A DNA stretch of 63,428 bases, the filler included, from Octopus bimaculoides (taxonomy: Eukaryota), in NCBI RefSeq assembly GCF_001194135.2. It is 6 parts of 6 records of this genome, joined end to end, with 100 filler letters (N's around TTAATTAATTAA, not from the genome) between each part and the next. Parts side by side here need not be neighbours in the genome. Positions count along the whole stretch, not along the records: positions 39,005 to 50,139 come from NC_068984.1; positions 50,240 to 52,399 come from NC_069007.1; positions 52,500 to 60,331 come from NC_068987.1; 3 more parts are not named here. The stretch is one strand, 5' to 3'. The notes beneath the pieces were generated by a model. The model saw only the letters and a program-made list of their open reading frames with translations. It did not search any database and was not told the DNA's origin. A program made the position numbers and the translations under genes. Positions 21,521 through 63,428 of the stretch are shown here, piece after piece. The first letter of the stretch is position 1. Each line of letters begins with the position of its first letter.

Positions 21521-21555
<35 letters not shown>

Positions 21556-27024: not shown

Positions 27025-27188
27025 GTGCACAAATATATCACATGTATCCTTTCTACGGCGCATAACACTAGCCTGTTGTTTGGTCAATTTCTTCTGATAA
27101 TCATCCTTTAACTATTTTCTTAAAAACTCTGTTCTTAATTCCTCCTGCTATTATATATATTGCCAGTGATATAATTTTTGAAAGCATT

Positions 27189-27927
27189 GGATCTAGTTCA
27201 AAACGGGGGCGCCAGTATTTTCTTAACGAAACACTTTGAAACTTGGGACACTGGTAGAATGTGTCATATAAAACATCTTTTTCTCTTAGTCTTCTTAAGA
27301 AAAATTATTATATTGCAATTTATTTCATGTTAAAGTTGTCGTATTTCTGTAATTTCAACCAATGACTGACGTCCATTCAGCCGAATACATTAAGTGCTGA
27401 CTACGTAAACAAACGATTCTCAAACGATTCTGGCGGTGATAAAATTATTATTTCCTTGTCAAAAAATGGCTGAAGCATATTGGCAGTAGCTAATAAACCT
27501 TTCTATTATAGGCACAAGGCCTGGTTTTTGAGGGAAGGGTTAGGGTTAGGGTTAGGGTTAGGGTTAGGGCAAATGTTGTACACATACAGTTCAGGCAGAT
27601 GTTAACGAAATTATATTAAAAATAAAACAAAGGAAAACGAACACACGTGTGTTGCCTCTCTGCAAAATGTCAGATGTAATGAAGATTAATTACGCTTTAC
27701 ACCGCTTAAACTGCCAAAGGAGTAACTGTAAACAGTTACTTGTCAGTGATTGGTTGAAATTATCGAAATAAGACAATTTTTTACATGAAATAACTTCGAA
27801 TACAAAATTTTTTTTCAGTTCTATAACACAAAATAGATAAGTATACGAAGTTTGAAAGTCTTTCGGTACCAAAAAACACTACATAAAACATAAATGAAAA
27901 CTGGTGCCCCCGTTTTGAACTAGATCC
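27189..27927. mobile_element. Non-autonomous DNA transposon, 28-bp TIRs beginning GG, 8-bp TSD AAAGCATT (Merlin-like or hAT/P-like)
   Basis: TIR GGATCTAGTTCAAAACGGGGGC(G/A)CCAGT at 27189-27216 and 27900-27927 (1 mismatch); identical AAAGCATT at 27181-27188 and 27928-27935; extra internal inverted segment about 27322-27370 / 27742-27793. Confidence 0.85.
27540..27569 (+). repeat. Interstitial telomere-type repeat (TTAGGG)5
   Basis: Five perfect units preceded by AGGG. Confidence 0.9.
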
Positions 27928-28616
27928 AAAGCATTAATATGCATGTGCATACGAGTGCGTATGTGTCTGCCTGCCTGTCTGTCTGTCTGTCTGTCTGTTT
28001 CTCTCTCTCTCCTCTCGTTCCCTCTCTCTCTCTCTTTCTCTATGTTCGTGTGTGAATATTTTTACATAAATGCAACTACGGGTCGGGATATGTTTGAAAG
28101 AGAAAGAGATTATTAAAAAGAAACGCTCAGAGAGTGGTGCTAGGTTGAGAAACTAATAAACAAAAATATTATTTAGATTAAGGCAGAGAAAAATGCTGAA
28201 AATATAAAGAAAAAAGTTGCTGCTTTGTGAAGAAGGAAGCCAAACGGAACAAAATGCAATACTCGTAAACATTACAGCAGTGAGGTCCAACAATATATTC
28301 TGTCGGTGTCATCGAGGAAGAACGGCGTAACTCTTATCGCCATCTAAGGAATTCCAGATGGTGATAAACTGAAGCTGTTGACTTTCTCATTAACGCCATC
28401 AAAAGATTAGAATGTGAATCCAAGCGTAAGTTGACTGCTGAAGACGATCGCAAAAGTAACGGGCAAGAGATCGCACCCCCAACAACATACATGTATATAT
28501 GTGTGTGTATGTGTATGTGTGTGTATATGCGTGTATGTGTGTGTATGTGACGCGAGTGAGATAGAAAAAAATCGATAAATAGACAGATACATAGGTTCAT
28601 GGATATATATATATAT

Positions 28617-35605: not shown

Positions 35606-37071
35606 TCCCGAGCGTCCAGTAACATAATCTGTATCACGTCCTCGCGTTGTTTTTTGTTGTTGTTTTTTGTCGTTTTTCTTTTTTGAACCTATATATATAT
35701 ATATCTATATATATACGTAATTAGGATAAAGTCATTATTTAATGAGTTATCAGTCGCCGGCATGCTAAACTACCATAATAGTTAATTCATATTAAAATCA
35801 TAATAAGCGTTTTGAATGATTACAATACCCCAAATAGTCTAGGAACCACTTAGATTATTACTCCACTACACGAGATTTTAAGCGAGGAAAATAGACAGCG
35901 AGGATTTATAAAATAATTTGGATAATATCATATCTATAGATTTCATGTCTTGAGTAATTTAAAACCCCTTCCGATCATTTGCGGCAAGATATTGAACGTA
36001 AGTAAATGAAACATACATTATACATACAGTCATAAGCGCAAATAACGTACATGTATTTCGCACGCATGTATTTCCGAATTGAAATCCAAGCACCTATTTC
36101 AACCATGCGCTTATTTACTCAGAATATTTCTTAAGTAAATATGTTATAGTAGTGAATAACTCAAACCTTCAAATCTATAGATATGGTATTATCCAAATTA
36201 TTTCATAATTCTCTGTGTTTGTAAACTACTACCATCACTGTTCCTGTAACTTAAGGCTTTGGCAAAAGAGACCAATAATATAACAGGCTTACAGATGTAC
36301 TGGGTTCGATTCATTCGACTAAAAACTTTTCGAGGTGGTGCCCCAGCATGGTCACACTCTAATGATTGAAACAAGTAAAGCTGTGTGTGTGTGTGCGTGC
36401 GCACGTGTGGCTGTGTGAGTGTATGTGTGTGTCTGTGTGTGTGCATACACATGATAGAAAATATTTCTTTTCCTATATGTATATATCCGTGCAACGTTCA
36501 CAATACATTCCAATAGCACATGAAATTAATGTTGTTATGGTCACAAGACAGATAAGCTGCAGAAATCTGGAACTTTTTGGTTTCTTATATCGAACTGGTA
36601 CGCGATTAGGGAAGATTACACGCCGGAATTGATAGTAATGGACGTGAGAATTAATGGTGGCGTTGAATAAGACTTTCTAGCTGACGGTCGATATTCACAG
36701 ATGTGGAGATATACTTAGAATTTAAGAAGACAGAGCTAGTAGGATTAAGATAACAAATCCAGCGCGAATATATTATGTAAGGTTTATTTGAGGCTTAAAG
36801 CTGTGGATAAAGTTTATATGTGTTCCTGTATGTATGTATGTATGTATGTATATATGTATGTATGCATGTATGTATGTATGTAGAAAGATTCATCTATTAA
36901 TAAATGATTATGCACACACTCACTCTCTCCCCCTCTCTATCTTACAAAAACATGCTTATATATAGATGTATGCACATACCTTTCTTTCTTTCTTTCTGTC
37001 TGTCTCTCACTCTGTTTCTGTCTGTCTGTCTGTCTGTCAGTCTGTCTCTCTTGATATATATATATAATGCC

Positions 37072-42484: not shown

Positions 42485-44665
42485 ACAAATCCGTGTTATG
42501 GGTGCGGAGGCTTATATTTTAAAAAATCTAAAATATTTTTGAATGTGGAAAAATCTAACACAAAAGCTCACATTGTAGAACGAAACAAAAGAAAAAAATA
42601 GGTTGAACCAAAAATTTGTCAGCAAAAATTTTAAACGAGGCTCAGAAAAGAAAATTTGTTTCCATAAAAATGAATAATGTGAATATCAAGTTAAAATTGG
42701 ACAGTGATGTCACGATAATTACAATTGGGTAGTGATATCACGATAATTAACATGGAGAAAAATCGGGAAACCGAGATTAAAAGAATCTTCGAAAATTGCA
42801 TGTGGTGTTTCAGGAAAAAAAATTACATTTTAAGGGTGAAATGATAAGTGATGTTACATTTCGTGGGAAAACTTTGAAAACCAAAGCTTTTATGCTGAAT
42901 AATAAGACCGATTTATTTGGAACAGATGGGATAGAATTATTCAACTGATGAGACCTCATCATAATTTGTTTTTTTTTTTTTTGTAAGAATGTGAATGGTT
43001 CTTCCGCCAGTACAAATAAGGCGTTGGAGGAATTAAAAAAAAAAAAAGAAATTAAAAAAGATTTTTCCTGGAGTTCTTTTTCTGATGAATTAGGTCTTTG
43101 CACCAAAATAAAAGCGGAGTTTCAAGTAAAAGCAAGTGCTATACCGGTATTTAAACCGAAAGGAACCGTACTTTTCGCAGGGTTGAAACAAGTCAACGAA
43201 GANNNNNNNNNNNNNNNNNNNNNNNNNNNNNNNNNNNNNNNNNNNNNNNNNNNNNNNNNNNNNNNNNNNNNNNNNNNNNNNNNNNNNNNNNNNNNNNNNN
43301 NNNNNNNNNNNNNNNNNNNNNNNNNNNNNNNNNNNNNNNNNNNNNNNNNNNNNNNNNNNNNNNNNNNNNNNNNNNNNNNNNNNNNNNNNNNNNNNNNNNN
43401 NNNNNNNNNNNNNNNNNNNNNNNNNNNNNNNNNNNNNNNNNNNNNNNNNNNNNNNNNNNNNNNNNNNNNNNNNNNNNNNNNNNNNNNNNNNNNNNNNNNN
43501 NNNNNNNNNNNNNNNNNNNNNNNNNNNNNNNNNNNNNNNNNNNNNNNNNNNNNNNNNNNNNNNNNNNNNNNNNNNNNNNNNNNNNNNNNNNNNNNNNNNN
43601 NNNNNNNNNNNNNNNNNNNNNNNNNNNNNNNNNNNNNNNNNNNNNNNNNNNNNNNNNNNNNNNNNNNNNNNNNNNNNNNNNNNNNNNNNNNNNNNNNGGG
43701 ACGTAAACACACCAGCACCAGTTGTCAAGCGATGTTGGGGGGGGGGGCAAACACAGACACACAAACATATATATATATATATATATATATAGGTTCAAAA
43801 AAACAATAACAAAAAACAACAAAGTGAGGACGTGATATGGATAGTGTTATTGGACGCTCAGGAAAGGAAAGGGGCTTCTTTCAGTTTCCGTCTACCAAAT
43901 CCACTCACAAGGCTTTGGTCAGTGGGACTGAACCCGGAACCATGTGGTTGGTAAGCAAGCTACTTACCACACAGCTACTCCTACGCCTGTCGAAGATTGT
44001 TCAGAATTATTAACGATAAATACCCATAAAGGACTGTATAAATTTAATGGACTTCCTTTTGGTAAAAAGGTATCACCAGGCATTTTCCAACAAGTTATGG
44101 ACACTATGCTCTCAAGTTCGGATTATCTTTATCTTATTTTTGATTTCGTTATAGCCTACCTTGACGATATACTCATAAAAAGTAAATCTCGTTGTCAGCT
44201 TGCTGAGCACATTAAAAAGTTCTTCATAAAAAAAAGAAGGATTATGGTTTTAAGCTCAGCGAGGAAAGGTGCGAACTCTTTCATGTCAAGAATAAAATAT
44301 CTAGGGCAGATGAAAATGGACGCAGACCAGGCCTGTCAGAAGCGTGTGCAATAAAAATATGCCTCCCCCGACAAACATCACAACGTTACAAGCATTTTGG
44401 GGGCTCGCAAATTACTACCAGTCATACCAAATATGCATAATTTAAGAGCATCGCTGAATAACTTGTTAAAAAAAGACGTTAAGTGGAACTGGTCGGACAA
44501 ATACCTAAAAACCTTTTGAAGAAATTAAAAACATCTTAACGTCGGAATTGTCGCTAAGACGTTTTGATCCAAATTTAGAGATAGTCGTAGAATCAAACAC
44601 TAGTGAAAGTGGTATTGCAAAAATATGAAGATGGTTGCTTAAAAGCTGTAGCTCATGGTTCGCGT
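42485..44665 (+). mobile_element. Ty3/Gypsy LTR retrotransposon gag-pol remnant (Zn knuckle, protease, RT, start of RNase H), interrupted by a gap and a SINE
   Basis: PCYGCGG..HKSSHC, LD/GSDVTII protease motif (locally duplicated), FSDELGLCTKIKA..PVFKPK, LTINTHKGLYKFNGLPFG..SPGIFQQVMD, AYLDDILI, YLG, LANYY, FDPNLEIVVESNTSESGI. Confidence 0.9.
43699..43987 (-). mobile_element. SINE family A inserted into the Gypsy RT
   Basis: Matches family A; Gypsy RT resumes at about 43990. Confidence 0.85.
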
Positions 44666-47119: not shown

Positions 47120-47989
47120 NNNNNNNNNNNNNNNNNNNNNNNNNNNNNNNNNNNNNNNNNNNNNNNNNNNNNNNNNNNNNNNNNNNNNNNNNNNNNNNNN
47201 NNNNNNNNNNNNNNNNNNNNNNNNNNNNNNNNNNNNNNNNNNNNNNNNNNNNNNNNNNNNNNNNNNNNNNNNNNNNNNNNNNNNNNNNNNNNNNNNNNNN
47301 NNNNNNNNNNNNNNNNNNNNNNNNNNNNNNNNNNNNNNNNNNNNNNNNNNNNNNNNNNNNNNNNNNNNNNNNNNNNNNNNNNNNNNNNNNNNNNNNNNNN
47401 NNNNNNNNNNNNNNNNNNNNNNNNNNNNNNNNNNNNNNNNNNNNNNNNNNNNNNNNNNNNNNNNNNNNNNNNNNNNNNNNNNNNNNNNNNNNNNNNNNNN
47501 NNNNNNNNNNNNNNNNNNNNNNNNNNNNNNNNNNNNNNNNNNNNNNNNNNNNNNNNNNNNNNNNNNNNNNNNNNNNNNNNNNNNNNNNNNNNNNNNNNNN
47601 NNNNNNNNNNNNNNNNNNNNNNNNNNNNNNNNNNNNNNNNNNNNNNNNNNNNNNNNNNNNNNNNNNNNNNNNNNNNNNNNNNNNNNNNNNNNNNNNNNNN
47701 NNNNNNNNNNNNNNNNNNNNNNNNNNNNNNNNNNNNNNNNNNNNNNNNNNNNNNNNNNNNNNNNNNNNNNNNNNNNNNNNNNNNNNNNNNNNNNNNNNNN
47801 NNNNNNNNNNNNNNNNNNNNNNNNNNNNNNNNNNNNNNNNNNNNNNNNNNNNNNNNNNNNNNNNNNNNNNNNNNNNNNNNNNNNNNNNNNNNNNNNNNNN
47901 NNNNNNNNNNNNNNNNNNNNNNNNNNNNNNNNNNNNNNNNNNNNNNNNNNNNNNNNNNNNNNNNNNNNNNNNNNNNNNNNNNNNNNNNN

Positions 47990-48024
<35 letters not shown>

Positions 48025-48490
48025 AGTTGTAATAACCATACGTAACCATAAGTACCATTCTTTCTTTAACAGACCCACTCTGAAATTATCCTATTCATCT
48101 ACACCAAATATAGAATCTGGTCCAACCACTTTAAACAACTTAAACATACATAATATAATCCCCACCTCAGAGGGTAATGGGCGCGCACCTGAAACGGACG
48201 CAAACACTAATAGGCACACTGATATTAACAACACTAATTATGTTATAACCGCTACAACTAATAATACATGTACTTCAAGTATTAATAGGACTAGTAATAA
48301 TATTATTACTAACACCAACAGCAATATTGCCATTACTGAAAACCGTACTATCATTAACACTCCTACTACAAACGCAACTATTAATAGGCGTAATAGTAAC
48401 GTCACTAATACCACTTCCTCTACCACCGCTAATATTAATGCTACTACTAATGATATGACTACTGCCGCTGCTACTACTACTACTACCACA

Positions 48491-48607
<117 letters not shown>

Positions 48608-48696
48608 TAATTCAAATTACGACAAACGTAAATAAACGAACGAAGTTTGCTTTTAGAAGCGTTGAGATGTCTTGGAAAGTTAAAGAAGTGATTTTA

Positions 48697-48932
48697 AATT
48701 CTCAATCGCAGAATAATGCTAATAATATAGTCTGAACAGGATAAACTACCCCTATTTTGCAGAGAGGAATTTGTAGTGGGTAGTTTAGCTTAATCGGTCA
48801 AAGCATCGTGACATGTAATCACGGGGATGTGAGTTCGTGTCCACAGCTAGCCACCTACACTTTTCTCTGCAAAATAGGGATAGTTTATCCTGTTCAGGCT
48901 ATATTATTAGCATTTTTCTGCGATTGAGAATT
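48697..48932. mobile_element. Foldback element 1: long inverted arms with a tRNA-like apex
   Basis: 48697-48765 versus the reverse complement of 48864-48932 has 3 mismatches in 69 bp; looser pairing continues into the tRNA acceptor stem. Confidence 0.8.
48779..48852 (+). pseudogene. Degenerate tRNA-like sequence (Thr-UGU-like anticodon loop CATGTAA)
   Basis: Box A TAGCTTAATCGG, D stem GCTT/AAGC, anticodon stem CGTGA/TCACG, T loop TTCGTGT, acceptor GGTAGTT/AGCTAGC, TTTT at 48861. Confidence 0.65.
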
Positions 48933-49714
48933 ATAATTATAATTACAACACCGATGCCGATAACGAAAATGACGATATTAATAATAATAATGATAATGGT
49001 AACGCTGGCGTTGATATCGATACTAGAAACGACAGCAATAATAACAACAATATCACGATCGATTCACCAAATACCACCCTAGCGACTACCAGCACGACCT
49101 CATGTCTCTCTCCAGTTAACCATGATAGAACCTATAACTGTAACTTGAGATCTAGGGCAGAATGCCCAATGCAAGCCCAATGCAGAAGATTGAATGTCGT
49201 ATACCGATGCACTGTTCACAACATGGTAAATAACTCCTGTAACTACTACATTTGATCCAGCACCGATTTTAAACAAAAAAGTATTACGCACATTTAAATT
49301 GGTTTAAATATAAGGAGAATAGCAATTTCACAACACTAGACAGCCATATACACCATCTAATTAATACAAAAATACAGTATAAGCTTCCCTAGACTCGGGT
49401 ACCCCATATCAGGGCCAACACTCTTCAGTTGCGGACTTTGCTTAAAAGAAGCTCTCAAAATTCTAGCCACAATTCTCACCACAATTATTTAATAAATGCA
49501 ACTAGGCCTTCACTACGTGTAAGCACAAAATCTTCCGCTCTTTTAAATTCTTTCCTGAATCTAAATGTAAGCTCACCCTCCACGAATAGCACTCACATAC
49601 ACACCCCTATGATCATTAACACATACCCCATTCTATATCTCTATAACTATTATTTCTACATTATGTCTTACCACTCTTGTATCTACCTTAACTCATCACA
49701 CTATACTCATACTC

Positions 49715-49885
49715 TTTACTCTTTTGCTTGTTTCAGTCATTTGACTGCGGCCATGCTGGAGCAAAGCTTTTAGACGAGCAAATCGACCCCAGGGCTTATT
49801 CTTTGTAAGCCTAGTACTTATTCTATTGGACTCTTTTGCCGAACCGCTATGTTACGGGGACGTAAACACACCAGCATCGGTTGTA
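49715..49885 (-). mobile_element. SINE family A, 3' half
   Basis: GTTTCAGTCATTTGACTGCGGCCATGCTGGAGCA.. matches family A. Confidence 0.85.
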
Positions 49886-50388
49886 TGGTCTGACTAAGTG
49901 AAAATGTTTTTTTGTATTCTTCTTTCCCACTTGGAGTGTTTAAATGTAATTTCAATAATATATCCTTCTACTGAAATGAAATTTCAGTAAATTTTCTGTA
50001 TCCTGGTGCAGCTGAAGATTGCTCTGCATTTTACATTTAATGTATTTTGGAATTGTTTGGATAATACCATACTTCTTAATTCTGGTGCCTAAACTTAAGT
50101 ACCATATTCACCTTGAATCTAAATATATATATATATATANNNNNNNNNNNNNNNNNNNNNNNNNNNNNNNNNNNNNNNNNNNNTTAATTAATTAANNNNN
50201 NNNNNNNNNNNNNNNNNNNNNNNNNNNNNNNNNNNNNNNAACGAGAGAGAGAGAGCGATTGAAAGAAAGAACAATTATGTAGAGGTATGGATTTATGGTT
50301 AAGAGTTCAATCCTTCTGCATATTAAAAAAAAACAATAACGAACTTATTGCATGCAGTGTTCAGGTGCACTACAACTCATCGGAAGAA

Positions 50389-50424
50389 GTTGTCAAAGTG
50401 GTGGCAGGCGACAAACACAAAAAG

Positions 50425-50455
<31 letters not shown>

Positions 50456-50778
50456 CATGACAGGCTTCTTTCAGTCTCTGTCGATCGGATCCACTCCCAA
50501 AGCTTTGGTTGGCACAGGGCTATAGTAAAAGACACTTGTGCAAGGTGTCACATAGTATGACTGAACCCACAACCATGCTTGACAACTAGTGTTGGTGTGT
50601 TTATGGCCCCACAACTTAGTGGTTCAGCAAAACAAAACAACAGAAAAAGTACCAGGATTTAAAATAAAAATAAAAAAAAACAAATATGTGGGTCAATTCG
50701 TTCAAAACTAAAACTTCTTCAAGGCAGTGCCCCAGCATGGGCTGTAGTCTAATAACTGAAACAGATAAACGATAAAAC
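50389..50778. mobile_element. SINE family A copy with inverted 5' half
   Basis: 50389-50577 is the minus-strand head half, joined directly to the plus-strand tail half at 50578-50778. Confidence 0.65.
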
Positions 50779-51069
50779 ACACACACACACACACAGCTAT
50801 CATGGGTTGTTCATGTGTATTTGTGTTGTGCCGAAAAACAAAATATGCCATGAAAACCATTTAAGGTAATTTCTAGAGAGAACCAAACTAAGCAGTTTCA
50901 CTGATGTTCCAGTTGATCAGGACCTGCTTACCTCCCCTTCCCAATATGCTGGCAACCACTCCATAAAGAGTACTGGATGCTTTTTATGTGGCACCATAAC
51001 AAGTGCACTTTTCCTGTGGCAACAATAAATTAGTCAATGAGGGGGTCTCTCAATTTATTATTGTGAGGA

Positions 51070-51440
51070 AGACAGGTGCTTGGAGACCAGTGGAATGTGG
51101 TTTGTAATTAGAATATTGAGGATAGCATGGACAATGTGTCTGATGAAGAAGTGATGACCCGGGTTGCAGTAAATAGGAAACTGCTTCATGAGATTAAGGG
51201 TCAAGCAACTGAAACTTTTTTTGGTCAAGCGATTGGAAAAGAGGGCCTGGAGAACCTATTGGTGACCAGAAAGATTGAATGGAAAAAGCAGTAGAGGAAG
51301 AAGGACAATATGGCTGTCACGCTTCATGAACTGGTTGGAAGAAAAAAGGCAGTAAACATTGGGAAGTGGAACTGTTACAGAAAACAAAGAACAGAGAATT
51401 GTGACAAGACATGGTTGCTCATGAGAGATGAGGATTCGAG
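51070..51440 (+). mobile_element. RTE-like LINE C-terminal fragment
   Basis: RCLETSGMWFVIRILRIAWT..VSDEEVMTRV..RKLLHEI..QLK.FG..EGLENLLVT.KIE..SRGRR pattern. Confidence 0.75.
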
Positions 51441-51540
51441 TCTCTACATCTACACAGGAAAGTTAGATGGTTTGAAAAACGAGCTAGTTTTTTTATGGAG
51501 TTTCTCTATATGCCTCCATTGAAGTCTAATGTTGGCTCCG

Positions 51541-51609
51541 TACCGATTAGATAATACAGTCCTGCATTTAAGAGATGAGGAAATACAGAACTGTATTATC
51601 AAATCGGTA
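51541..51609. other. 69-nt imperfect hairpin (29-bp stem, 3 mismatches, 11-nt loop)
   Basis: TACCGATTAGATAATACAGTCCTGCATTT pairs with AAATACAGAACTGTATTATCAAATCGGTA. Confidence 0.75.
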
Positions 51610-51943
51610 TGGTTGCTCATGTCCGACATTCTTGACCATGGCACCTAAAAAAAACAAAAAAACGAAGACAACTTACCTGCAATGGTCATATCAATATTCT
51701 CTGCTTTAACCCTGGAAGTAACAAAAATAGAACACCATTAAAATAAAAACCAAAAACAAAACATGCATGAATACAAATAAACAAAAGTATATAAACACAC
51801 ACACACGTTTGTGTGTGTGTGTGTGTGTATATATATATCTGTAAAAATATGTGACACTTATTTGGTGTCATACTTTTACAGATAAATTCCTCTATTTACA
51901 TAATATCGAGGTCTCTTTCTTTCTTTTGTTGTCCTTTCTATCA

Positions 51944-51978
<35 letters not shown>

Positions 51979-51987
51979 TAGAGATAA

Positions 51988-52176
51988 AAAAGGATAAAGA
52001 GAACAATGGCAAAGTTAGAAATATATTTTATGGATAAAGTCTTACAGCTGTTTCAGGCAAAATCCAATGTATCCCTTCATTGGAGACAGAAATAATAGAG
52101 GAATGGATTATTATAGCTGTAAGACTTTATCCATAAAATATACTGCTAACTTTGCCATTGTTCTCTTTATCCTTTT
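51988..52176. mobile_element. Foldback element 3: 62-bp inverted arms with a hammerhead-like apex
   Basis: 51988-52049 versus the reverse complement of 52115-52176 has 2 mismatches; the minus strand reads GTCT-CCAATGA-AGG..CCT-GAAA-CAGCTGT-A-AGAC. Confidence 0.7.
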
Positions 52177-52326
52177 CTCTCTTTATACATACACACGCTA
52201 ATACACGACCTATGTTATAATCCCCACTCTTGTTTATACAACGAATGGGGCAAAACTAGCCGGTATACAGCACTTACTCGGTATTACCTGTATCTTTGGG
52301 TTTGGTTGGATCCAATACCCTTCTTA

Positions 52327-52363
<37 letters not shown>

Positions 52364-52610
52364 TCATCATTATTTATGGTCTATTTTCCATGCTAGCATN
52401 NNNNNNNNNNNNNNNNNNNNNNNNNNNNNNNNNNNNNNNNNNNTTAATTAATTAANNNNNNNNNNNNNNNNNNNNNNNNNNNNNNNNNNNNNNNNNNNNA
52501 TATATATATATATATATATATATATAATCATCATCATCATCATTTAGTGTCTGTTTTTCATGCTGGCATGGTTTTTACGGCAGGATGCCAACCACTTCAT
52601 AGAGTGTACT

Positions 52611-52745
52611 GGGTGTCTTTCACATGTCACCAGCATGGGTACCTTCAAGGTGTCACCAGCATGAGTGTCTTCAACGTGTCACTGGCACAGGTGACTCTTA
52701 CATGTCACTGGCATGGGTGTTTTCACGTATCACCAACACTGGCGA
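52611..52745. repeat. 26-bp degenerate minisatellite, about 5 units
   Basis: TGTCAC recurs at 52625, 52651, 52677 and 52703. Confidence 0.8.
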
Positions 52746-52788
52746 CAAATATGATTTTGTATAAGGAAATATATAACATATATACATG

Positions 52789-52819
<31 letters not shown>

Positions 52820-55019
52820 GGGGGCGAGAGAGAGACAGATAGACAGACAGACAGATAGAAACAGAAAAATATAAATATATGTCTATGTGTTTGGTAATGA
52901 AGTTAATTCATTGCAGATGTCCATTACCATATTAATTAAAATATACATATATTGTTTTTTTACAATTATTCATCCCAAAATCTCAGCCAAATCTAAGAGT
53001 CTTCACCCAATGCTTGCTCTAGAGGTTAATTAACAAAAATTATCAATAAAGAAAAGATGAATACATTGTAAAAAGCTAATAATTATACAATAAGATAAGT
53101 TACAAGAGTAAATAAACAGAAAAGAAAAATTAACAAAAGAATATATTACAAATCCTTGAAAAGATCTTTCTTCCTGATAATATAAGCCAATGATACAAGA
53201 GCTAACAGAATTATAAAGAAACATAAAAACAATTATTATCATATGGCGAATATCATTAATAACATGTAAAATGAACAAAAAAGTAATTAATTAAATTTTT
53301 AAAATTAATCATTTAATTAAACAAATGGTCAGCTTCAATCCTTGTGGTATATTGTTTTATTTGTTTTGGGTTTTGATATATAATATGTGTGTGTTTCTAC
53401 ACATATACATTGTCAGATTTGATCAATTTTAAAAGAAGTATACTAAATAGTTTTGAAGAAGGAAATATTTAAAATGAGGAATTTTTCATTTGAATTTGGC
53501 AGAGTTCAGTCAAAGAAATGGGCAGTAAGATGATGGAAAGGAAGAGAAGTTTTAAAAAGAACAAGAAAAGTTTAAGAAGTACCATTTTCTTCTGCAGCAG
53601 AATCATCTGGATTTTCTCTTCTTAAAGAAGAAGCAGCAGACATTGAAAATTTTGCATTATTTTCTTTTTAAATAAATTACATAGAGTGTTTTGTCATTGG
53701 CTATTTTTCTGGACAGTCTACAAGGGATGTGTTACTTCATTAGAAAATTAATTCACACCTCTCTTAACATTCTCTGATCTAGATTGAATCATTCTTCCAA
53801 TGTCTGTGAGCTCACGCCAGATATATTCTCTTGGTATATTCCCTTCTTCCTCAGCATTCAGTCATTGCAGCATCTTTCCAATAAAGTTCTTTCAGCTTCG
53901 CTGATGGACAGTTTCTCATATCCTTCTCAATCAAGTTATTTATATCCTCTTCAATTGCCTGAACAGAATTTCTTCAAATATAGGCTCTGCCTCAAGTATA
54001 ATATTTCAAAGACAATGCCATAGTGTTCATCAAGAAAAGTTCAATTAGAAAATCTCTTCTTGTCAAGTCATCAGAAGAAGTTACTTAAAGCTACTTAAGA
54101 ACAGGTTCAAGATGTTTTGTACACACTTTAAAAAAAAAATTGCTATTACTTGCTAATCTATGGGTTATAGCAGAAAAGTGGTATTAGGAGGCATGAAATG
54201 ATTTAATGAAATTATCTTCCCTTTAAAAGGAAATTAAATAATATTCTTGATATTAAAACACTGTAAACTTACATATTGTATTTCCCAAACCCTATACCTT
54301 GATTAACTAATCCTACCCAGAACTGCAATGCAACCCATTCTAATGTTTTAAAACCCTATAAATTATCACAATAACAAATTGTCAACTCTACTTTGACCCT
54401 GCAAAGTAAATGGTAGGTGAGGTGCCTCCTGGGATAGTGTGCAAGTCTATCACAGAGACTCTTTCATAGAGATTTTAGTAAACTTAACCATGTAGAATTG
54501 CCTTATAAATTTGTCCAATAACATTGTCATATAGAATTGTCTTATAGTATTGGCCATATGAAATCACTCAATAGAATTTTCCAATAAATTTGTCCTACAA
54601 AGCTGCAGTTAAAATTAATCTTTTGGCTCATCCCTATAGAATTGTCCTCCAAAAATGCCCTGTAGAATGCTTTATAATATTGCCCCAAAATATTATCCAT
54701 ACAGAATTACCCTATAGAATTTCTCCATAAGAGAACAACAATATATATTCGAATTTGAGCTGAACTCATTTCCAGTGATTTGGGAGTCAAACATCACAAC
54801 TATTAAACGCACTACCACTGTATATCACAGATGCACCAAATTTTAAATGTGTATACATTCAACAAACACATGAGCATACATTCAATATGTACTACATAAA
54901 GATCATTCAATATATATTACAAATGCATACCTTTAACATTTACTACATGAGCATACATTCAACATATACTTCATGGGAATTATTCAACACGTACTTAATG
55001 TTCATACATTCAACAAATA

Positions 55020-55247
55020 CTATTCTTTTACTTGTTTCAGTCATTTGACTGCAGCCACGCTGAAGCACTGCCTTGAAGGAGTTTAGTCAAAGAAATCAAT
55101 CCCAGGTCTTATTCTTTATAAGCCTAGTACTTATTCTATCAGTCTCTTTTGCCAAAGTGCTAAGTTACATGGACATAAACTCACCCGCATCGTTTGTCAA
55201 ATGATGGCAGGGGGACAAACACAGATACACACACATACACATATACA

Positions 55248-55344
<97 letters not shown>

Positions 55345-55629
55345 AAGAAAAGAAATGGAGCTAGAATTAACAATTAGAAGTTGATCATTGGTATTAAAAG
55401 GTCACAGTTTAATTAAACTATGACCTTTTAATACCAATGATCAACTTCCAATTGTTAATTGTTGCTCGATTTTTTTACTGATCTGAATATATTAAACCAC
55501 GGTTTACCATTATTTAAATTACCAACTACTGTTAACCTTATAGCAAGGCCTATACATAGTGAGGTAATACATCAGTAGTGCCTATGGATACATTTATCCC
55601 TTAGATGGTTGCATAACCTCTAACTCATA

Positions 55630-55665
<36 letters not shown>

Positions 55666-55990
55666 TCTTCTAGTCAGGTGTCGCACTTTGCAATGCTGTG
55701 GTCATCACGATGTCTTGCCATCTTCTCCTATCCTCTACCCCATGGACAGCTGAGAATAAAGACAATCCTGTGGCTGCAATGTCTTTCAGACAAGAAGTGG
55801 GTGGTCTACTGCATATATATATATATATATTACAGGTTTCTTTCACTTTCCATCAACCAAATCCACTCACAAAACTTTGGTCAGCCTGAGGCTATAATAG
55901 AAGACACTTGCCCAAGGTTCCGCACAGTGAGACTGAACCAGGAACCATATGGCTGGGAAGCAAGCTTCTTACCATGCAACCACACCTTCA
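55020..55990 (-). mobile_element. SINE family A split by an insertion of about 470 bp in its internal microsatellite
   Basis: Tail half at 55020-55230, head half at 55830-55990, same orientation, with (ATCT)n/(AT)n on both sides of the insert. Confidence 0.65.
55365..55460. repeat. Spacerless 96-bp palindrome (2 mismatched pairs), degenerate extension to about 55340-55485; probable MITE
   Basis: AATTAACAATTAGAAGTTGATCATTGGTATTAAAAGGTCACAGTTTAA is followed immediately by its near reverse complement. Confidence 0.9.
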
Positions 55991-56629
55991 CCTATATTTA
56001 CATACATTTAACATATACTACATGACCGTCCATAAATGCAATATAAATATCATTTGTACATATTCACAAACCCTTGTTGCATGAATATATGAACCAAACA
56101 TTGACATGAAGTTCTATGCACCAAATAATGCAGCTGTGCATATGCACCAGTCCTTAACATACATGCTTTACCCAATTATTAGAGCATGCAAATATGGTTT
56201 AAACATTGTATTTACTTGCATGGATGAACCAAACATGACATGCTCATGCATAGATTAATTTTTGCATGTGCACATATACTCCAAAGACTATGTGTGCATG
56301 CATGTATCAATGAACCTTGGTATATGTCTACATGTAGGAAACAGTAACACTGGTTCATATGCCTCAAACATTGACATGGATACATCTACACTGATCATTG
56401 CTACACAATTTGTCCTTTTTGAACTTCTTCACCATAATATAGCCCTCTAAACCCCTCCCTCCTATTTGTGTTCACTCACTACCTTCCTTCCCTCTAGCTC
56501 CCCTCCCCCTCCCCTTTCACCATCTTAAGAACTTTCTCATCCACTCACACTATACAATCCTTGCTTCCACTTCAATTTTATATACTTCCCTGTAACTTGA
56601 GCTTAACTCACACCCCAGCCCACTAACCA

Positions 56630-56955
56630 CTGGTCACATCTTCTGTCTTCTCTTTCCTCATCTCTCTTTCCTCTCTCTCTTCTCTCTGTCTCCTCTCTCT
56701 CTTCTCTCTGTCTCCTCTCTCTCTTCTCTCTGTCTCCTCTCTCTCTCTTCTCCCCTTCTCTCTCTCTCTTCTCCCCTTCTCTCTCTCTCTCTCTTCTCCC
56801 ATTTTTCTCTCTCTCTTCTCCCCTTCTATCTCTCTCTTCTCCCCTTCTCTCTCTCTCTTCTCCCCTTCTCTCTCACTCTCTCCTTTCTCTCTCTCTCTCT
56901 CTCCCCTTTCTTCTCTCTCACTCTCTCTCTCATTTCTCTTCTCTGTCTCTCTCTC
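56630..56955. repeat. Polypyrimidine (CT-rich) tract with TCTCTTCTCCCC-type subunits
   Basis: Seen directly; explains the RE-rich ORF at 56623-56997. Confidence 0.9.
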
Positions 56956-57131
56956 TGAAATATTGACTACATTATGTATTAATATAAAAATATGCATACA
57001 TAATTATGCACACACAGACACATATGCATTGAAATTGATGCACATAGACAGATGTGTAGGAAATGTCAGAGCAGATGTAAATACATATTGACATGCACAC
57101 ACACACACATGGTATTTTTGTATAAGCTTAA

Positions 57132-57467
57132 AGCTTATGGCGATCACTGCAATGACTAAGGAAAATAGTCTAATAAAGGGGCATATAAGCCCCCAAGCTT
57201 GAACATGGCATTATATAAAAAAAACCATTTGCACTGAAAGCATATAAAAAGTTTGTTTATTTAAAAGCAAATACGAACTAATATAGTTCTTAAATTTGAC
57301 AGAAAGAGGGAGGCTAATTCGCTGGTGTAAAGGTAACACACTTAGTTGCATTAACAAAGAGATGTGGATTCGTGTCCCACGCGAATAGGAAAGCCTTCTT
57401 TTCTCTGTTGAGGGTTTATATGCCCCTAAATTAGACTATTTTCCTTAGTCATTGCACAGTGATCGCT
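57132..57467. mobile_element. Foldback element 2: TTAA-flanked, AG...CT termini, tRNA-like apex, about 103-bp insertion in the left arm
   Basis: TTAA at 57128-57131 and 57468-57471; 26-bp perfect arm core GCAATGACTAAGGAAAATAGTCTAAT; inner arms 57300-57315 / 57392-57407 (12/16). Confidence 0.8.
57316..57388 (+). pseudogene. Degenerate tRNA-like cloverleaf (anticodon ambiguous, possibly GCA)
   Basis: Acceptor ATTCGC/GCGAAT, box A TGGTGTAAAGG, D stem GTGT/ACAC, anticodon stem CTTAG/CAAAG, T arm GTGGA-TTCGTGT-CCCAC, TTTT at 57399. Confidence 0.65.
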
Positions 57468-57552
57468 TTAAGCATATATAAAAATACCATTATTATTATT
57501 TACAGGATTGTAAAACACAGCACCGTATAAAAAAACCCCATTCAAACCGAAA

Positions 57553-57599
<47 letters not shown>

Positions 57600-58039
57600 T
57601 ATGCAATTCCAGCATAGAAGGTGTTTATCAGCCATTTCAAAATATACTAAAACCGTTAGATTCACTTCAACATTTAATTTGTCAAAATATTTTCGTCGCT
57701 TTGAAGCCGCGACCTGTTCACTGACAAAATTCTGTGCTGCATCTGAGAAAGTAACGGTTAGTTCACGATGTGTGTGTGTATGCACGTATGCATATGTGTA
57801 CATGTGTATGCATGCGTGCATGCTTATACAAATAATGTGCATATGCATGTTTATGAGTTTTTAGTTATGTAAGCTTGTTGACGTGTGTGTGTGTGTGGGT
57901 AGGTGGGTGGGTGTGTGTATGTACATGTGAGCATATGTTTATCTACTGATATGTTTGTCTGTTCAAGTTGTAAATATGACTGTTACTCTGTCGAAGGTTG
58001 TATATATATATATATAGAGAGAGAGAATGGGGGGGGGGA

Positions 58040-58200
58040 GAATTCACGGAAAAACAAAAGACGAAGACATGTAGTATAGACAACAAACAGATGTATTAGT
58101 TTAACGCTCAGGAAGTGAAAAAAGTCGTTAATGTTTCGAGCCTATGCTCTTCCACAGAAAGAAAAACAGAAAGAAACAAGGAGAGAAAATAAAGATATGT
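58040..58200 (-). mobile_element. Probable PLE terminal-repeat fragment with a variant hammerhead-like motif at 58125-58162
   Basis: Minus strand TCTTT-CTGTGGA-A-GAGC(atag)GCTC-GAAA-CAT-T-AACGA. Confidence 0.45.
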
Positions 58201-58204
58201 ATAT

Positions 58205-60331
58205 ATATATATGACGAAATAGAAGGAGATGTAGCTTCACACGATGTAGAAGACAACTGGAAATTTCTACGGGACAACCTGCTGAGGGCCACTGAGCAGA
58301 TCTGTGGATGGTGCAAAGTCCCCTCTCGACCCAAAATAACGTCGTGGTGGAACAATGTTGTTGATAGGGCTATTAGACAAAAAAAAAAAAAAAAGAAACA
58401 GGCTTGGAAGGACTGGAAGAACGGTGGTAGCAGGGAATTGTATCAGACTGCCAGAAGGGAAGCTAGGCGACAGGTTTACTTAGCCAGAGGGGAACCAGAT
58501 AAGAAAAAAATTGCCAAAATTCTACGCCATGAGGGCCAAAGATTTGAGGTATTTTGTGTTGCAAGACAGTGTATGAGACAGAATCGTGATGTCGTGGGAG
58601 AGAAATGTGTTCGCATGGATGATAGTACACTTGCACTAAACNNNNNNNNNNNNNNNNNNNNNNNNNNNNNNNNNNNNNNNNNNNNNNNNNNNNNNNNNNN
58701 NNNNNNNNNNNNNNNNNNNNNNNNNNNNNNNNNNNNNNNNNNNNNNNNNNNNNNNNNNNNNNNNNNNNNNNNNNNNNNNNNNNNNNNNNNNNNNNNNNNN
58801 NNNNNNNNNNNNNNNNNNNNNNNNNNNNNNNNNNNNNNNNNNNNNNNNNNNNNNNNNNNNNNNNNNNNNNNNNNNNNNNNNNNNNNNNNNNNNNNNNNNN
58901 NNNNNNNNNNNNNNNNNNNNNNNNNNNNNNNNNNNNNNNNNNNNNNNNNNNNNNNNNNNNNNNNNNNNNNNNNNNNNNNNNNNNNNNNNNNNNNNNNNNN
59001 NNNNNNNNNNNNNNNNNNNNNNNNNNNNNNNNNNNNNNNNNNNNNNNNNNNNNNNNNNNNNNNNNNNNNNNNNNNNNNNNNNNNNNNNNNNNNNNNNNNN
59101 NNNNNNNNNNNNNNNNNNNNNNNNNNNNNNNNNNNNNNNNNNNNNNNNNNNNNNNNNNNNNNNNNNNNNNNNNNNNNNNNNNNNNNNNNNNNNNNNNNNN
59201 NNNNNNNNNNNNNNNNNNNNNNNNNNNNNNNNNNNNNNNNNNNNNNNNNNNNNNNNNNNNNNNNNNNNNNNNNNNNNNNNNNNNNNNNNNNNNNNNNNNN
59301 NNNNNNNNNNNNNNNNNNNNNNNNNNNNNNNNNNNNNNNNNNNNNNNNNNNNNNNNNNNNNNNNNNNNNNNNNNNNNNNNNNNNNNNNNNNNNNNNNNNN
59401 NNNNNNNNNNNNNNNNNNNNNNNNNNNNNNNNNNNNNNNNNNNNNNNNNNNNNNNNNNNNNNNNNNNNNNNNNNNNNNNNNNNNNNNNNNNNNNNNNNNN
59501 NNNNNNNNNNNNNNNNNNNNNNNNNNNNNNNNNNNNNNNNNNNNNNNNNNNNNNNNNNNNNNNNNNNNGAACTAGAGGAGAAGTTTCAGGTGTGGAAGCA
59601 GAGACTAGAATCGAAGGGCCTTAGAGTCAACCTAGCTAAAACCAAAGTCCTAATAAGTAGGAAGGTAGACAAAACACAAACCCCTTCAGGTAGATGGCCC
59701 TGCTCGATCTGTAGAAAAGGCGTAGGTAGAAACTCTATAAGATGTACCCAGTGAAAGCTATGGATACATAAGAGGTGCAGCAATATCAAAGGAAGGTTAA
59801 CTAAGAAGTTAGTTTTTGTATGTGGCAGATGTTCAGGAGCAATAAACACTGAAAATGTGCAGAAAACAACTTTGGCCACATTCTAGGGAAAAAAACTAAA
59901 CTTAGTTGATAGCTTCCACTATCTAGGTGACCAAGTTAGTAGTGGGGGAGGGTGCGCTGAAAGTGTAGCTGCTAGAATATGAATAGCCTGGACACAGTTC
60001 AGAGAGCTCTTATCTCTGCTGGTGACAAGGGGCCTCTCACTCAGAGTAAAAGGCAGACTGTACGACGCATGTGTACGAACAGCCATGCTACATGGCAGTG
60101 AAACACGGGCCGTGACTGCTGAGGACATGCGTAGGCCCGCAAGGAATGAAGCCAGTATACTTCGATGGATGTGTAATGTCAGTGTGCATACTAGACAGAG
60201 TGTAAGTACCTTGAGAGAAAAGTTGAACCTAAGATGCATCAGTTGTGGTGTGCAAGAGAGACAATTGCGCTGGTATGGTCATGTGGCGAGAATGGATGAG
60301 GATAGCTGTGTGAAAAAGTGTCACACCCTAG
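58205..60331 (+). mobile_element. RTE-clade LINE, relatively young, with a PHD-like finger after the RT core; central RT lost in a gap; in-frame stops
   Basis: VEDNWKFLRDNLLRATEQICGW..WWNNVVDRAI..; LESKGLRVNLAKTKVL; CSICRKGVGRNSIRCTQ*KLWIHKRC..CGRC; FHYLGDQV; KGRLYDACVRTAMLHGSET; RQLRWYGHVARM. Confidence 0.92.
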
Positions 60332-60431: not shown

Positions 60432-63428
60432 CGTACGTACGTTCGTTTGTTCGTTCGTTCGTTCTTTCGTTCGTACCTACGTACATACTTACATTCTTTC
60501 GTTCCTTCAATCGTTCTTTCTTTTGTTTGTTCGATCGTTCGTTCTTACGTACGTTCGTTCGTTCGTTGGATCTTTCGTTCATTCGTACGTACGTAGGTAC
60601 GTTCGTTCTTTCGTTCGTACGAAAGTACGTTCGTTCGTTCGTACTTACGTATGTTCATTCGTACGTACATACGTACGTATATACGTTGGTCCGTTTGAAC
60701 GTACGTTCGTTTGTTGGATCGTTCGTTTGTTCTGTTGTGCATTCGTACGTACGTTCCTACGTTCGTTCGATCGTTACATACGTAATTTCATTCATTAGTT
60801 CGTTCGCACGTACGTTCGTTTGCTTGCTCCTTCATTTCGTTTTTCATTCGAACGTACGTACTATCGTTCGTTTGTACATACGTTCATTCGCTCGTTCGTT
60901 CGTTCGTAGATGCTTTCGTTCGTTTATTCTTTCGTCCGTCCGTACGTACGTACTTTCGTTCGTTCTTTCGTTGGATCGTTCGTTCATTCGTACATACGTA
61001 CGTATATACGTTGGTTCGTTTGTACGTACGTAAGTTCATTCGTTAGTTCGGTCGTACGTTCGTTCGTACGGTCGCTTGCTGCTTCATTTCGTTCGTTCGT
61101 TCGAGGAAACGTACGTACGAAAGAACGAACGATCGTACGGACGGACGCCAGAATAAACGAACGAAAGCATCTACGTACCTCCGTACGTACGAACGAGAGA
61201 ATGAACGTATGTACGAACGAACGATAGTACGTACCAACGAAATGAAGGAGCAAGCGAACGTAAGAACGAACGTACGAACGAACTAAAGAATGAACTTACG
61301 TATGTACGTCCGAACGAACAAAATATCGTACGTACGTAATTACGTATTTACGAGCGAACGAACGAACGCAAGAGCGACTGTAGGATCGTACGTTCGTACG
61401 AATGAAATAACGAACGAACGTACGTACGTGCGGACGGACGAACGAACGTACGTGCGTAAGAACGAACGAACGATCGAAACAAACGAACGTAGGAACGTAC
61501 GTACCTACGAACGTACGAACTAATAAAGGAACGTACGTACGTACGAATGCGGAAAAGAACAAACGAACGATCTAACGAACGAACGTACGCACGTATGTAA
61601 TTACGTAAGTACAATCGAACCAACGCATATACGTACGTACGTACGTCTGTTCGAACGAACGTACTTTCGTACGAACGAAAGAACGAACGTACGTACATAC
61701 GTACGAATGAACGTACGATCCAACGAACGAACGTACGTACGAACGGACCAATGAACGATCGATCGAACAAACAAAGGAAAGGACGATTGAAGGAACGAAC
61801 GAATGTAAGTATATACGTAGGTACGAACGAAAGAACGAACGTACGTACGAAAGAACGAACGAACGTACGTACGAACGAACGTACGTACGAACGACCGAAC
61901 GAAAGGACGGACGTACGAACAAAAGAACGAACGTACGTACGTAAGCACGAACGAACGAACGTACGTACCTACGGATGCACAAAAGAACAAAAGACCGATC
62001 CAACGAACGAACGTACGTACGTAAGCACGTACGTAAGTGCGTACGTACAAACGAACCAACGTATATACGTACGCATGTAGATACCAATGAACGAGTGATC
62101 CAACGAACGAACGTACGTACGTACGTACGAACGGTCCAATGAATGAATAATCGTACAAACAAAAGAAAGAACGATTGAAGGAACGAACGAATGTATGTAC
62201 CTAGGTACGAACGAACAAACGAGAAATGAACGTACGTAAGTACATACGTACGAAAGAACGAACGATCGCACAAATGAACGAACGTGCGTACGAACGTACG
62301 TACGAACGAACGAAGTAAAGAACGAAGGAAATGAAGGAGCAAGCGAACGTACGAACGAACGAACTAACAAATGAAATTACGTATGTACGTACGAACGAAC
62401 GAAATATCGTAGTACGTAACTAGGTATTTACGATCGAACGAACGAACGATAGTACGTAGGAACGAACAAACGAGCGATCGAACGAACGAACGCAAGAGCG
62501 ACCGTAGGAACGTACGTTCGTACGAATGAAATAACGAACGAACGACCGAACGGACGGACGAACGAACGAAAGAACGAATGAACGATGGAACGAACGAACG
62601 TAGGAACGTACGTACTACCATTAAACGTACGAACGAACTAACGAACGAATGTACGTACGCACGAATTCACAAAAAAACAAACGAACGTAAGTACGAACAA
62701 ACGAAGTAACGAAAGAACGAGATGAAGGATCAAGCGAACGTACGAACGAACTAACGAATGAACTTATATACGTACGAACGAACGAAATATCGTACGTACG
62801 TAATTACGTATTTACGATCGAACGAAAGAGCGACCGTAGGAACGTACGTTCGTACGAATGAAATAACGCACGAACGTACGTACATACGTACGAAAGACCG
62901 AACGGACGGACGAACGAACGTACGTACGAAAGAATGAACGTACGTACGCAAGCACGAACGAAAGCATCTACGTACGAGCAAATGAACGTATGTACGAACG
63001 AACGAACAAACGAAATGAAGGAGCAAGCAAACGAACGTACGTACGAACGATCGTACGTACGTAATTAAGTATTTACGATCGAACGAACGAACGCAAGAGC
63101 GACCGTAGGAACGTACGAATGAAATAACGAACGAACGTACGAACGAACGAACGAAAGAACGAACGTACGTACGTAAGCACGCACGAACGAACGAACGTAG
63201 GAACGTACGTACGTACTTAAGATCGTACGAACGAACGATTCAATGAACGCATGTACGTACGAGCGCATGAACAAACGAACGTACATACGTACATACGAAA
63301 GAACGTACGTACTTAGGCACGAAAGAACGAGCTAACATACGAACGTACGTATATACGTTGAGAAGGACGTACGTAAGAAAGAGCGAACGAACTTACGTAA
63401 TAACGAATAAACAAACGTGTATATATAA
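60432..63428. repeat. CpG-rich degenerate tetranucleotide satellite (TACG/AACG/TTCG) with higher-order landmarks and a strand inversion near 61105
   Basis: Dominant tetramer switches from TTCG to AACG at about 61103-61108; landmark GAAATGAAGGAGCAAGC recurs on both strands. Confidence 0.92.

Follow-up and report, generated by a model that had tools for sequence, protein, structure and literature searches.

The question

A 63,428-nucleotide stretch of Octopus bimaculoides DNA (the whole stretch analysed, filler included, hereafter the window) holds two foldback elements, designated E1 (48697-48932) and E2 (57109-57490), in which long inverted arms enclose a tRNA-like cloverleaf. The locus raises the question of what such an element is: whether the cloverleaf is a passenger in an ordinary hairpin repeat or part of a mobile unit that carries its own small-RNA gene. 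The best explanation, to which we would give about an even chance, is that E1 and E2 are non-autonomous, long-inverted-repeat DNA transposons, each carrying an entire predicted RNA polymerase III (Pol III) gene, the product of which would be a tRNA mimic with no part in translation. The pairing of an inverted-repeat transposon with a tRNA-mimic gene is apparently undescribed.

Architecture of E1 and E2

The window DNA is animal, AT-rich, and contains many gaps and many microsatellites. Within it, E1 folds at -143 kcal/mol (z -20.2; none of 200 shuffles is as good), and its arms, 48697-48768 and 48861-48932, are complementary at 67 of 74 positions about one axis (three positions outside the arm end counted). 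The fold of E2 has a z of -13.9, with 0 of 100 shuffles as good. A structure descriptor was used instead of a covariance model because two-sequence alignments of E1 and E2 were out of register; relaxed to allow a 5- or 6-bp anticodon stem, it finds exactly two cloverleaves in the window, those of E1 and E2, both only with a 6-bp stem, and none in 30 block shuffles of the window. The arm-cloverleaf-arm architecture proposed for both elements in a preliminary description of this DNA is thus upheld. Evidence on further copies comes from a word search of public sequencing runs and from run contigs aligned to 48615-49214, and covers E1 only. The features of the two elements are as follows.

48612-48696, no strand assigned: outer segment of the E1 family, unpaired in this copy (run X1, summed depth 0.26-0.98M; 117 contigs overrun the ends of the stretch)
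48697-48768, no strand assigned: E1 left arm (fold and arm pairing)
48769-48778, plus strand: predicted 5′ leader of E1, pairing with the trailer in the fold
48779-48852, plus strand: E1 tRNA-like cloverleaf with a 6-bp anticodon stem, A33 and TGT at the anticodon position (Rfam, descriptor)
48853-48864, plus strand: E1 trailer with T4 run (48861-48864), a predicted Pol III terminator (sequence)
48861-48932, no strand assigned: E1 right arm, which in this copy stops near 48931 (fold; depth drop and loose ends at 48931)
57109-57195, no strand assigned: E2 outer left arm, starting ATGG, with an internal TTAA (57128-57131), adjoining (CA)n (arm pairing)
57196-57298, plus strand: unpaired 103-nt segment of E2 with TATA-like words, ending in CTTAAATTTG (fold and sequence)
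57299-57315, plus strand: 5′ side of the E2 inner stem, predicted leader included (fold)
57316-57388, plus strand: E2 tRNA-like cloverleaf with G33, CAT at the anticodon position and T58 (Rfam, descriptor)
57389-57408, plus strand: E2 trailer, T4 run (57399-57402) and 3′ side of the inner stem (fold and sequence)
57409-57490, no strand assigned: E2 outer right arm, with an internal TTAA (57468-57471), ending CCAT, adjoining (ATT)n (arm pairing)

The limits of both elements differ from those first drawn. E2 had been placed at 57132-57467; the foldback is there, and its arms reach 57109-57490. The TTAA words flanking the earlier coordinates are therefore internal, the arms pairing for about 19 nt beyond them, so the idea of a TTAA-bounded transposon is not supported, and what survives of that model, a Pol III cassette in an element moving as DNA, remains the best one. 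A TTAA-bounded core may be nested inside the longer arms of E2. Its cloverleaf, described as lying at the symmetry axis, does lie between arms and caps the inner stem, but the 103-nt unpaired segment of the left arm sets it off-centre in the whole element. Within that segment a TATA-like word, TAATATA (57279-57285), occupies -37 to -31 relative to the core. The flanks of E2 are a CA-repeat and an ATT-repeat; no 4-bp target duplication is found there, and a possible AT/AT duplication is indistinguishable from an extension of the arms.

For E1, 48697-48932 is a sound description of the foldback in this copy, but not of the family, which extends leftward to at least 48615; the right arm of this copy ends near 48931. 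The segment at 48612-48696 is probably the outer stretch of an inverted repeat longer than the present one, and the true terminus of the family is at or to the left of 48615, beside an (AAT)n array (48541-48611) that is the left neighbour of this segment; the termini of E1 itself lie outside the aligned stretch or have been lost. A small hairpin (48633-48651) lies within the leftward extension. TTAA is absent on the right side of E1, and there is no break there among the 19 of 493 loose ends listed. No open reading frame of at least 110 amino acids spans the core of either element. Both elements thus have inverted terminal arms without a reading frame, as expected of a MITE (miniature inverted-repeat transposable element) or foldback, and for E1 alone a high, interspersed copy number can be added.

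The tRNA-like cores

In a short scan, the E1 core scores 28.1 bits against the Rfam tRNA model (RF00005; cut-off 29), and the E2 core 32.8 bits in a scan of 141 nt, although it goes unreported in the 10.8-kb and whole-window scans. ARAGORN at default settings calls neither; its relaxed output, 35 mostly spurious calls with E1 and E2 among them, was not used as evidence. Rfam also gives a weak match of E2 to the skipping-rope family (18.5 versus 36.7 bits), which was set aside.

Both cores depart from a functional tRNA in the same way. The anticodon stem has 6 bp (with one mismatch in E2) and position 33 is a purine, whereas U33 is present in 39 of 40 control tRNAs, a set taken from phages (L004); these two features argue against decoding, and the mimic is predicted not to function in translation. 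The T stem of E1 is short by one base in this copy. Position 58 is T in both copies and had been put forward as a hallmark of the family, but the corresponding site of E1, 48838, reads A in 86% (run X1) and 91% (X13) of the family's depth, as it does in 35 of 35 controls. T58 also occurs in one X16 contig and is therefore not private to this copy. In the minimum-energy fold of E1, given T58, the T loop can pair with the anticodon loop (48813-48815 with 48836-48838); T58 may thus both weaken the B box and switch the fold.

The best phage-tRNA match is Lys, then His, for the E1 core and Asp for that of E2. A blastn search against phages gives no match for E1 and for E2 only matches at E >= 0.3, the top one being 26 nt of the D arm of a phage tRNA-Asp. 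Together with pattern scans of viral contigs, this search yields no evidence for a viral origin. The single match to six patterns among viral contigs (L001) has no tRNA or flanking similarity, the single match among metagenome contigs (L003) has no repeat, tRNA or Rfam match, and both were judged to be chance; a scan of genome contigs gave 0 matches.

Kinship of the two elements

Several features common to E1 and E2 suggest that they are related. Beyond the long anticodon stem and purine 33, they have in common a 7-nt anticodon loop, a 4-nt RGAT variable loop, CTTTTCTCTG directly after the core and a T4 run 8-10 nt downstream of it. The T loop TTCGTGT, RGATGTG and TTTTCTCTG, all pointed out in the preliminary description, are indeed present in their places in both. 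The spacing from D stem to anticodon is 9 nt in both elements and 8 nt in 33 of the 40 controls. A T-arm block is identical at 16 of 19 positions, a degree of likeness matched by only 10 of 574 pairs of controls of different isotype (35 tRNAs, the five long-armed Ser/Leu/Tyr tRNAs being left out of the core alignments). Finally, loose ends of other E1-family copies before 48763 (X1, X13) have a TATA-like word together with CTTAA(A)TTTGC at their tips, which matches the end of the unpaired segment of E2 (CTTAAATTTG); the fuller form of the family therefore probably has such a segment, which E1 lacks.

Taken together, these features make common descent of E1 and E2 likely. Among the 22 stem pairs compared, nine show double changes, one a single change, seven are identical, and five are broken in one copy. 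If common descent holds, the nine double changes and the single change, all with pairing kept, would point to selection on shape, which for two sequences is a suggestive pattern. The similarity of the arms, one of the grounds on which kinship was first proposed, exceeds that of shuffles only marginally (left arm z 2.3, 63 of 2000 shuffles scoring as high; right arm z 2.0, 92 of 2000) and is lost in the outer right arm (z 0.6). Moreover, ATAGTCT, proposed as an arm motif, is not typical of the E1 family, in which its T (48731) reads C in 99% of depth. Of the view that this is an old family in which the fold was maintained, the multi-copy part is thus borne out for E1, and a shared origin is likely from markers other than those first proposed.

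Two candidates for a third member were rejected. The stretch 24110-24320 contains an exact TTCGTGTCC, but its fold has a z of only -1.6 and its similarity z values are 0.0 and 0.7; this weak hairpin also holds an ACTAA-ATAGT word resembling the arm motif, which is not significant. A T-arm-like word at 51427-51450 resembles that of E2, with A58, but has no cloverleaf or matching arms.

Abundance and variation of the E1 family

The E1 family is very abundant, with roughly 10^3-10^4 copies, so that the case in which only these two copies exist can be set aside for E1. The run search used 21 words sampled from the E1 stretch; half or more of them are present in 18 of the 24 runs listed, and the stretch, whole or in part, is found in 13 studies under four organism labels. 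Insect metatranscriptome runs contain 0.19 of the words. Contigs aligned to the stretch number 3,679 in X1 and 2,516 in X13. With an identical flank contig (depth 62.7) as the reference, the summed depth in X1 is about 9,000-10,600-fold over the arms, 14,000-fold over the outer left segment and 1,200-1,800-fold over the core; summed contig depth is not a true copy number, and therefore only its order of magnitude is taken. Depth runs leftward to 48615 and collapses past 48931.

Variation within the family was read from 40 of 128 variants, the 19 loose ends mentioned above and the 31 joints shown. In 15 of these 31 joints the left part is joined to the right arm, and such internally deleted forms fit the derivatives expected of elements with terminal inverted repeats (TIRs). 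The majority letters at 48731 and 48880 (at the latter, 74% of depth in X1 and 44% in X13) pair where this copy of E1 mismatches. Positions 48813 and 48814 vary in about one third of the depth in X1 and 6% in X13, changing TGT to CGT if they are linked, in which case both variants would be Thr anticodons. At 48865, T accounts for 36% of X1 depth and gives a longer T run. Loose ends at 48675 occur in 12 and 23 contigs, with a consensus ending in TTTTA.

Two further runs deserve mention. In X16, a run guessed to be RNA, nine contigs give a core-to-arm depth of 1.1-4.5, where DNA runs give 0.11-0.31. The difference is a weak hint, not evidence of expression, and the contig ends at 48763 and 48868 are not RNA ends, because the arms begin mirroring there. 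In the insect metatranscriptome run X19, a contig of depth 3.2 matches 48639-48674 and then runs into its near mirror image; it may represent a shortened derivative, a related element from an insect, or contamination, and X19 has no contig on 48690-48940.

A proposed mobile element with a Pol III tRNA mimic

The proposed explanation begins with an abundant family of inverted-repeat elements, shown for E1 only, whose majority letters improve arm pairing over that of the present copy. Eukaryotic tRNA-type Pol III genes are laid out with an upstream TATA-like word, a leader and trailer, and a T4 run. The layout seen here matches, with a TATA-like word some 30 nt upstream (about -37 to -28), leader-trailer pairing, a cloverleaf with A and B boxes, and T4 at +8 to +10, and would have the corresponding function. 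The predicted transcript, of some 90-100 nt, would contain neither arm and so, unlike SINE (short interspersed element) RNA, would offer no template for copying the element. The simplest reading would then be that the unit moves as DNA, its ends being recognised by an enzyme that is supplied in trans. A tyrosine recombinase (YR) of CryptonV type would fit, since the elements adjoin microsatellites and E2 shows no clear duplication. Both elements border on AAT/ATT arrays. Of the 10 foldbacks in the window, 6 stop at microsatellites, against a null mean of 2.2 (P 0.007), with boundaries partly set after inspection.

To judge by the two sequences, the cloverleaf may have been kept by selection on its shape while the acceptor, D and anticodon stems diverged. 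The likeliest role would be a selfish one, in which occupancy by Pol III and TFIIIC, or a stable tRNA-like RNA, keeps copies accessible; alternatively, the benefit could lie in evading the silencing that long hairpins provoke. A bolder version, which we consider unlikely, is that E1 and E2 represent an old class of inverted-repeat elements encoding their own Pol III tRNA mimic under structural selection, with the RNA acting in trans as a decoy against defences directed at double-stranded RNA (dsRNA) or serving the transposing enzyme as a cofactor. The host animal is known for heavy RNA editing.

A number of observations weigh against the transposon explanation. Neither a transposase partner nor a terminus or target duplication turned up, and scans of contig collections gave chance matches or none. 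In isolation, neither core forms a cloverleaf at minimum energy (z -1.2 for E1 and -1.1 for E2), and the minimum-energy fold of E1 pairs the T loop with the anticodon arm. The evidence for kinship and for selection has its own weaknesses: a whole-core alignment score of 32 is reached by 20% of the 574 unrelated phage tRNA pairs, similarity between the arms amounts to a z of only about 2, 5 of the 22 stem pairs lack pairing in one copy, and double changes arise between any two real tRNAs, so that covariation counts only given common descent. Core depth is about 0.11 (X1) to 0.31 (X13) of the depth per arm; many copies of the E1 family must therefore lack the core or carry a diverged one. Finally, the X16 contigs read through the T4 site.

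Alternative explanations

Several of these observations suit a plainer account, in which E1 and E2 are ordinary MITE-like foldbacks with passenger tRNA or SINE heads, possibly captured twice (Thr/Lys-like in E1, Asp-like in E2), whose inherited fold is decaying. Core similarity no greater than that of a fifth of unrelated tRNA pairs, different nearest phage tRNAs (Lys, then His, against Asp), eight other foldbacks in the window without a cloverleaf, and core depth far under that of the arms are all as this account would have it. Independent captures, however, would hardly be expected to agree in purine 33, the additional anticodon pair, the RGAT loop, TTTTCTCTG and the motif upstream; a SINE body and tail are absent, and neither E1 nor E2 has a BLAST match to other repeats in the window. 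On balance, we find passengers unlikely. If selection on RNA shape is taken at face value, it would also suit an RNA intermediate, as in a non-autonomous retroelement of the Penelope/Naiad type, for which a read-through RNA made by Pol II, tRNA-like at its tip, would be reverse-transcribed at microsatellites, the arms arising from inverted pseudo-long-terminal-repeats (pLTRs). Naiads are present in Octopus species; they prefer microsatellites, generate inverted repeats at their flanks and have no hammerheads, according to the accessible part of PMC8557442. E1 and E2 likewise adjoin microsatellites. The 57 matches that Rfam gives in 47900-58700 at E<=10 include no hammerhead. The upstream TATA-like sequence and internal T4 run nevertheless suit a gene borne on DNA, long near-perfect arms recur across the E1 family, and neither a tandem pLTR copy nearby nor any link to a reverse transcriptase was found, so that a Naiad-like origin appears distinctly unlikely.

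A possible asymmetry of the E1 family would recall rolling-circle elements instead: in a Helentron/HINE element on the minus strand, the inverted arm would end close to one terminus but some 60 bp short of the other, and the hairpin at 48633-48651 would lie in that extension. The relevant text of PMC4067079 describes subterminal inverted repeats (subTIRs) 38-60 bp from the 3′ end, a palindrome 8-35 bp from the 3′ end, T-rich flanks and no target change, to which the loose ends at 48675, with their consensus ending TTTTA, could be compared. The subTIRs are only 12-15 bp long, though, against arms of at least 72 bp here, and DINE-1 has no tRNA-like parts as far as the accessible text of PMC2374699 goes. 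The X19 contig mirrors the outer segment, suggesting that this segment stands at both ends, and E2 has no such extension; a rolling-circle element thus seems very unlikely. When cut at 57110-57489, E2 ends in TG...CA, a mark of long terminal repeats (LTRs), which would be expected if E1 and E2 were solo LTRs of a Helenus-type terminal-repeat retrotransposon in miniature (TRIM). Helenus LTRs do hold a non-functional tRNA-like sequence, of Thr type in some bivalves, in the available text of PMC10886601, but the words "inverted", "palindrom" and "cephalopod" are absent from its main text. The 4-bp duplication, too, is absent at E2, and there is no second direct copy of E1 or E2 in the window (which solo LTRs would also lack), leaving this explanation highly improbable. 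Chance folding or faulty assembly might be suspected in a window so AT-rich, gap-ridden and full of hairpins, in which default ARAGORN and whole-window Rfam scans find nothing; set against fold z values of -20 and -14, a descriptor with 0 hits in 30 shuffles and thousands of independent contigs containing E1, this is scarcely credible, and for E1 it is already refuted.

Relation to known elements

The TIR class of MITEs and foldbacks is characterised by long inverted arms, a lack of coding capacity, very high copy number and internally deleted derivatives. The first two are common to E1 and E2, and the E1 family adds copy number and internal deletions; the complete tRNA-type gene layout in the loop is where both part company with MITEs. 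An A/B-box tRNA-like sequence in a repeat (of high copy for E1) recalls the tRNA-derived SINEs (SINE2), from whose anatomy E1 and E2 depart in that the tRNA part is internal, promoter-like DNA lies upstream, a T4 run and an arm follow directly, and there is no body or tail. The TTAA-type transposons piggyBac and Kolobok have TTAA duplications at their termini. Adenovirus virus-associated (VA) RNA and the tRNA-microRNA-encoded RNAs (TMERs) of gammaherpesviruses are parasite-borne Pol III units with a tRNA-type promoter and a terminal stem; their likeness to E1 and E2 is an analogy only, no viral sequence having been found in or near the elements.

The closest described kind is Helenus/TRIMp3 (Kojima 2024, PMC10886601, in the part available), also a short, non-autonomous, multicopy element with an internal, probably non-functional tRNA-like Pol III sequence, known from bivalve families, some of Thr type. 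It differs in having two direct LTRs, a primer-binding site and polypurine tract, 4-bp duplications (in animals) and conservation centred on boxes A and B, whereas in E1 and E2 long inverted arms enclose a single core, E2 has no duplication, and pairing of the stems has apparently been kept. Octopus tRNA-derived retroposons appear among the references of that paper. CryptonV comprises microsatellite-targeting YR transposons (PMC8869645, in its accessible part); E1 and E2 resemble them in that both adjoin microsatellites and that no clear duplication is seen at E2, but no tRNA cassette is seen in that text and no YR partner was found for E1 or E2. Other animal Cryptons are without terminal repeats (PMC3212892, same proviso). 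With the Helentrons, E1 may have in common an asymmetric inverted repeat, a subterminal hairpin and a T-rich flank, unlike as the short HINE subTIRs and tRNA-free DINE-1 are (PMC4067079, PMC2374699, in their accessible parts).

As to novelty, no description of a foldback element with a tRNA core was found in the accessible, mostly open-access literature, judged by titles and the openings of abstracts except for the papers cited, though such a family may exist unnamed in Dfam or Repbase. The available parts of a 2026 O. vulgaris repeat paper and its supplement (PMC13282606) describe no such family, and its Zenodo consensus library may hold one unnamed; those of PMC5753468, PMC4455052 and 10.64898/2026.07.22.740005 contain nothing further on this architecture.

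Other features of the window

The genome seems rich in hairpin elements. Seven further, unrelated foldbacks without a cloverleaf lie at 2050-2168, 5334-5898, 25579-25864, 35903-36211, 51538-51612, 51978-52186 and 55340-55485; several adjoin microsatellites, and those at 5334 and 51978 have inverted GA/TC-rich ends. To the right of E2, past a (TA)n array, 57606-57727 is a shortened second copy of the 25579-25864 foldback (71% over 101 nt). A 755-bp element at 27181-27935 has terminal and internal inverted repeats and telomere repeats of (TTAGGG) type at 27536-27569. At 60432-63349, a large degenerate (CGTT)n array followed by the inverse (ACGA)n forms an imperfect inverted repeat of kilobase scale. 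The top-ranking inverted repeat, 20736-21559, is spurious and comes from an N gap flanked by (TA)n arrays.

Coding remnants are also present. A reverse transcriptase fragment lies at 43932-44351 (Pfam RVT_1, E 8e-14), and broken reading frames at 51050-51450, which we take to resemble the C-terminus of a LINE (long interspersed element) reverse-transcriptase protein, run up to the T-arm-like word at 51427-51450. The region 58132-60330, presumably a LINE-like coding remnant across a gap, has no Pfam match. Five pairs of 44-N runs stand 12 nt apart, as at 50140-50239, where the spacer (50184-50195) contains a TTAA-type word; they are probably a scaffolding mark.

Implications

Should the fold prove to be a decaying passenger, E1 and E2 would be just one more unclassified MITE. 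If the transposon explanation is true, small-RNA-derived Pol III units, so far described in SINEs and TRIMs (Cassandra, Helenus, Ajax) in the accessible literature, would extend to transposons that move at the DNA level, and the family would offer a case in which selection on the shape of a tRNA, with no decoding involved, could be tested. A family of the E1 type would also inflate tRNA gene counts in the genome and contribute a great deal of long dsRNA to transcripts. If, in addition, the RNA acts in trans, it would be the transposon counterpart of the viral VA and TMER RNAs, present in thousands of copies.

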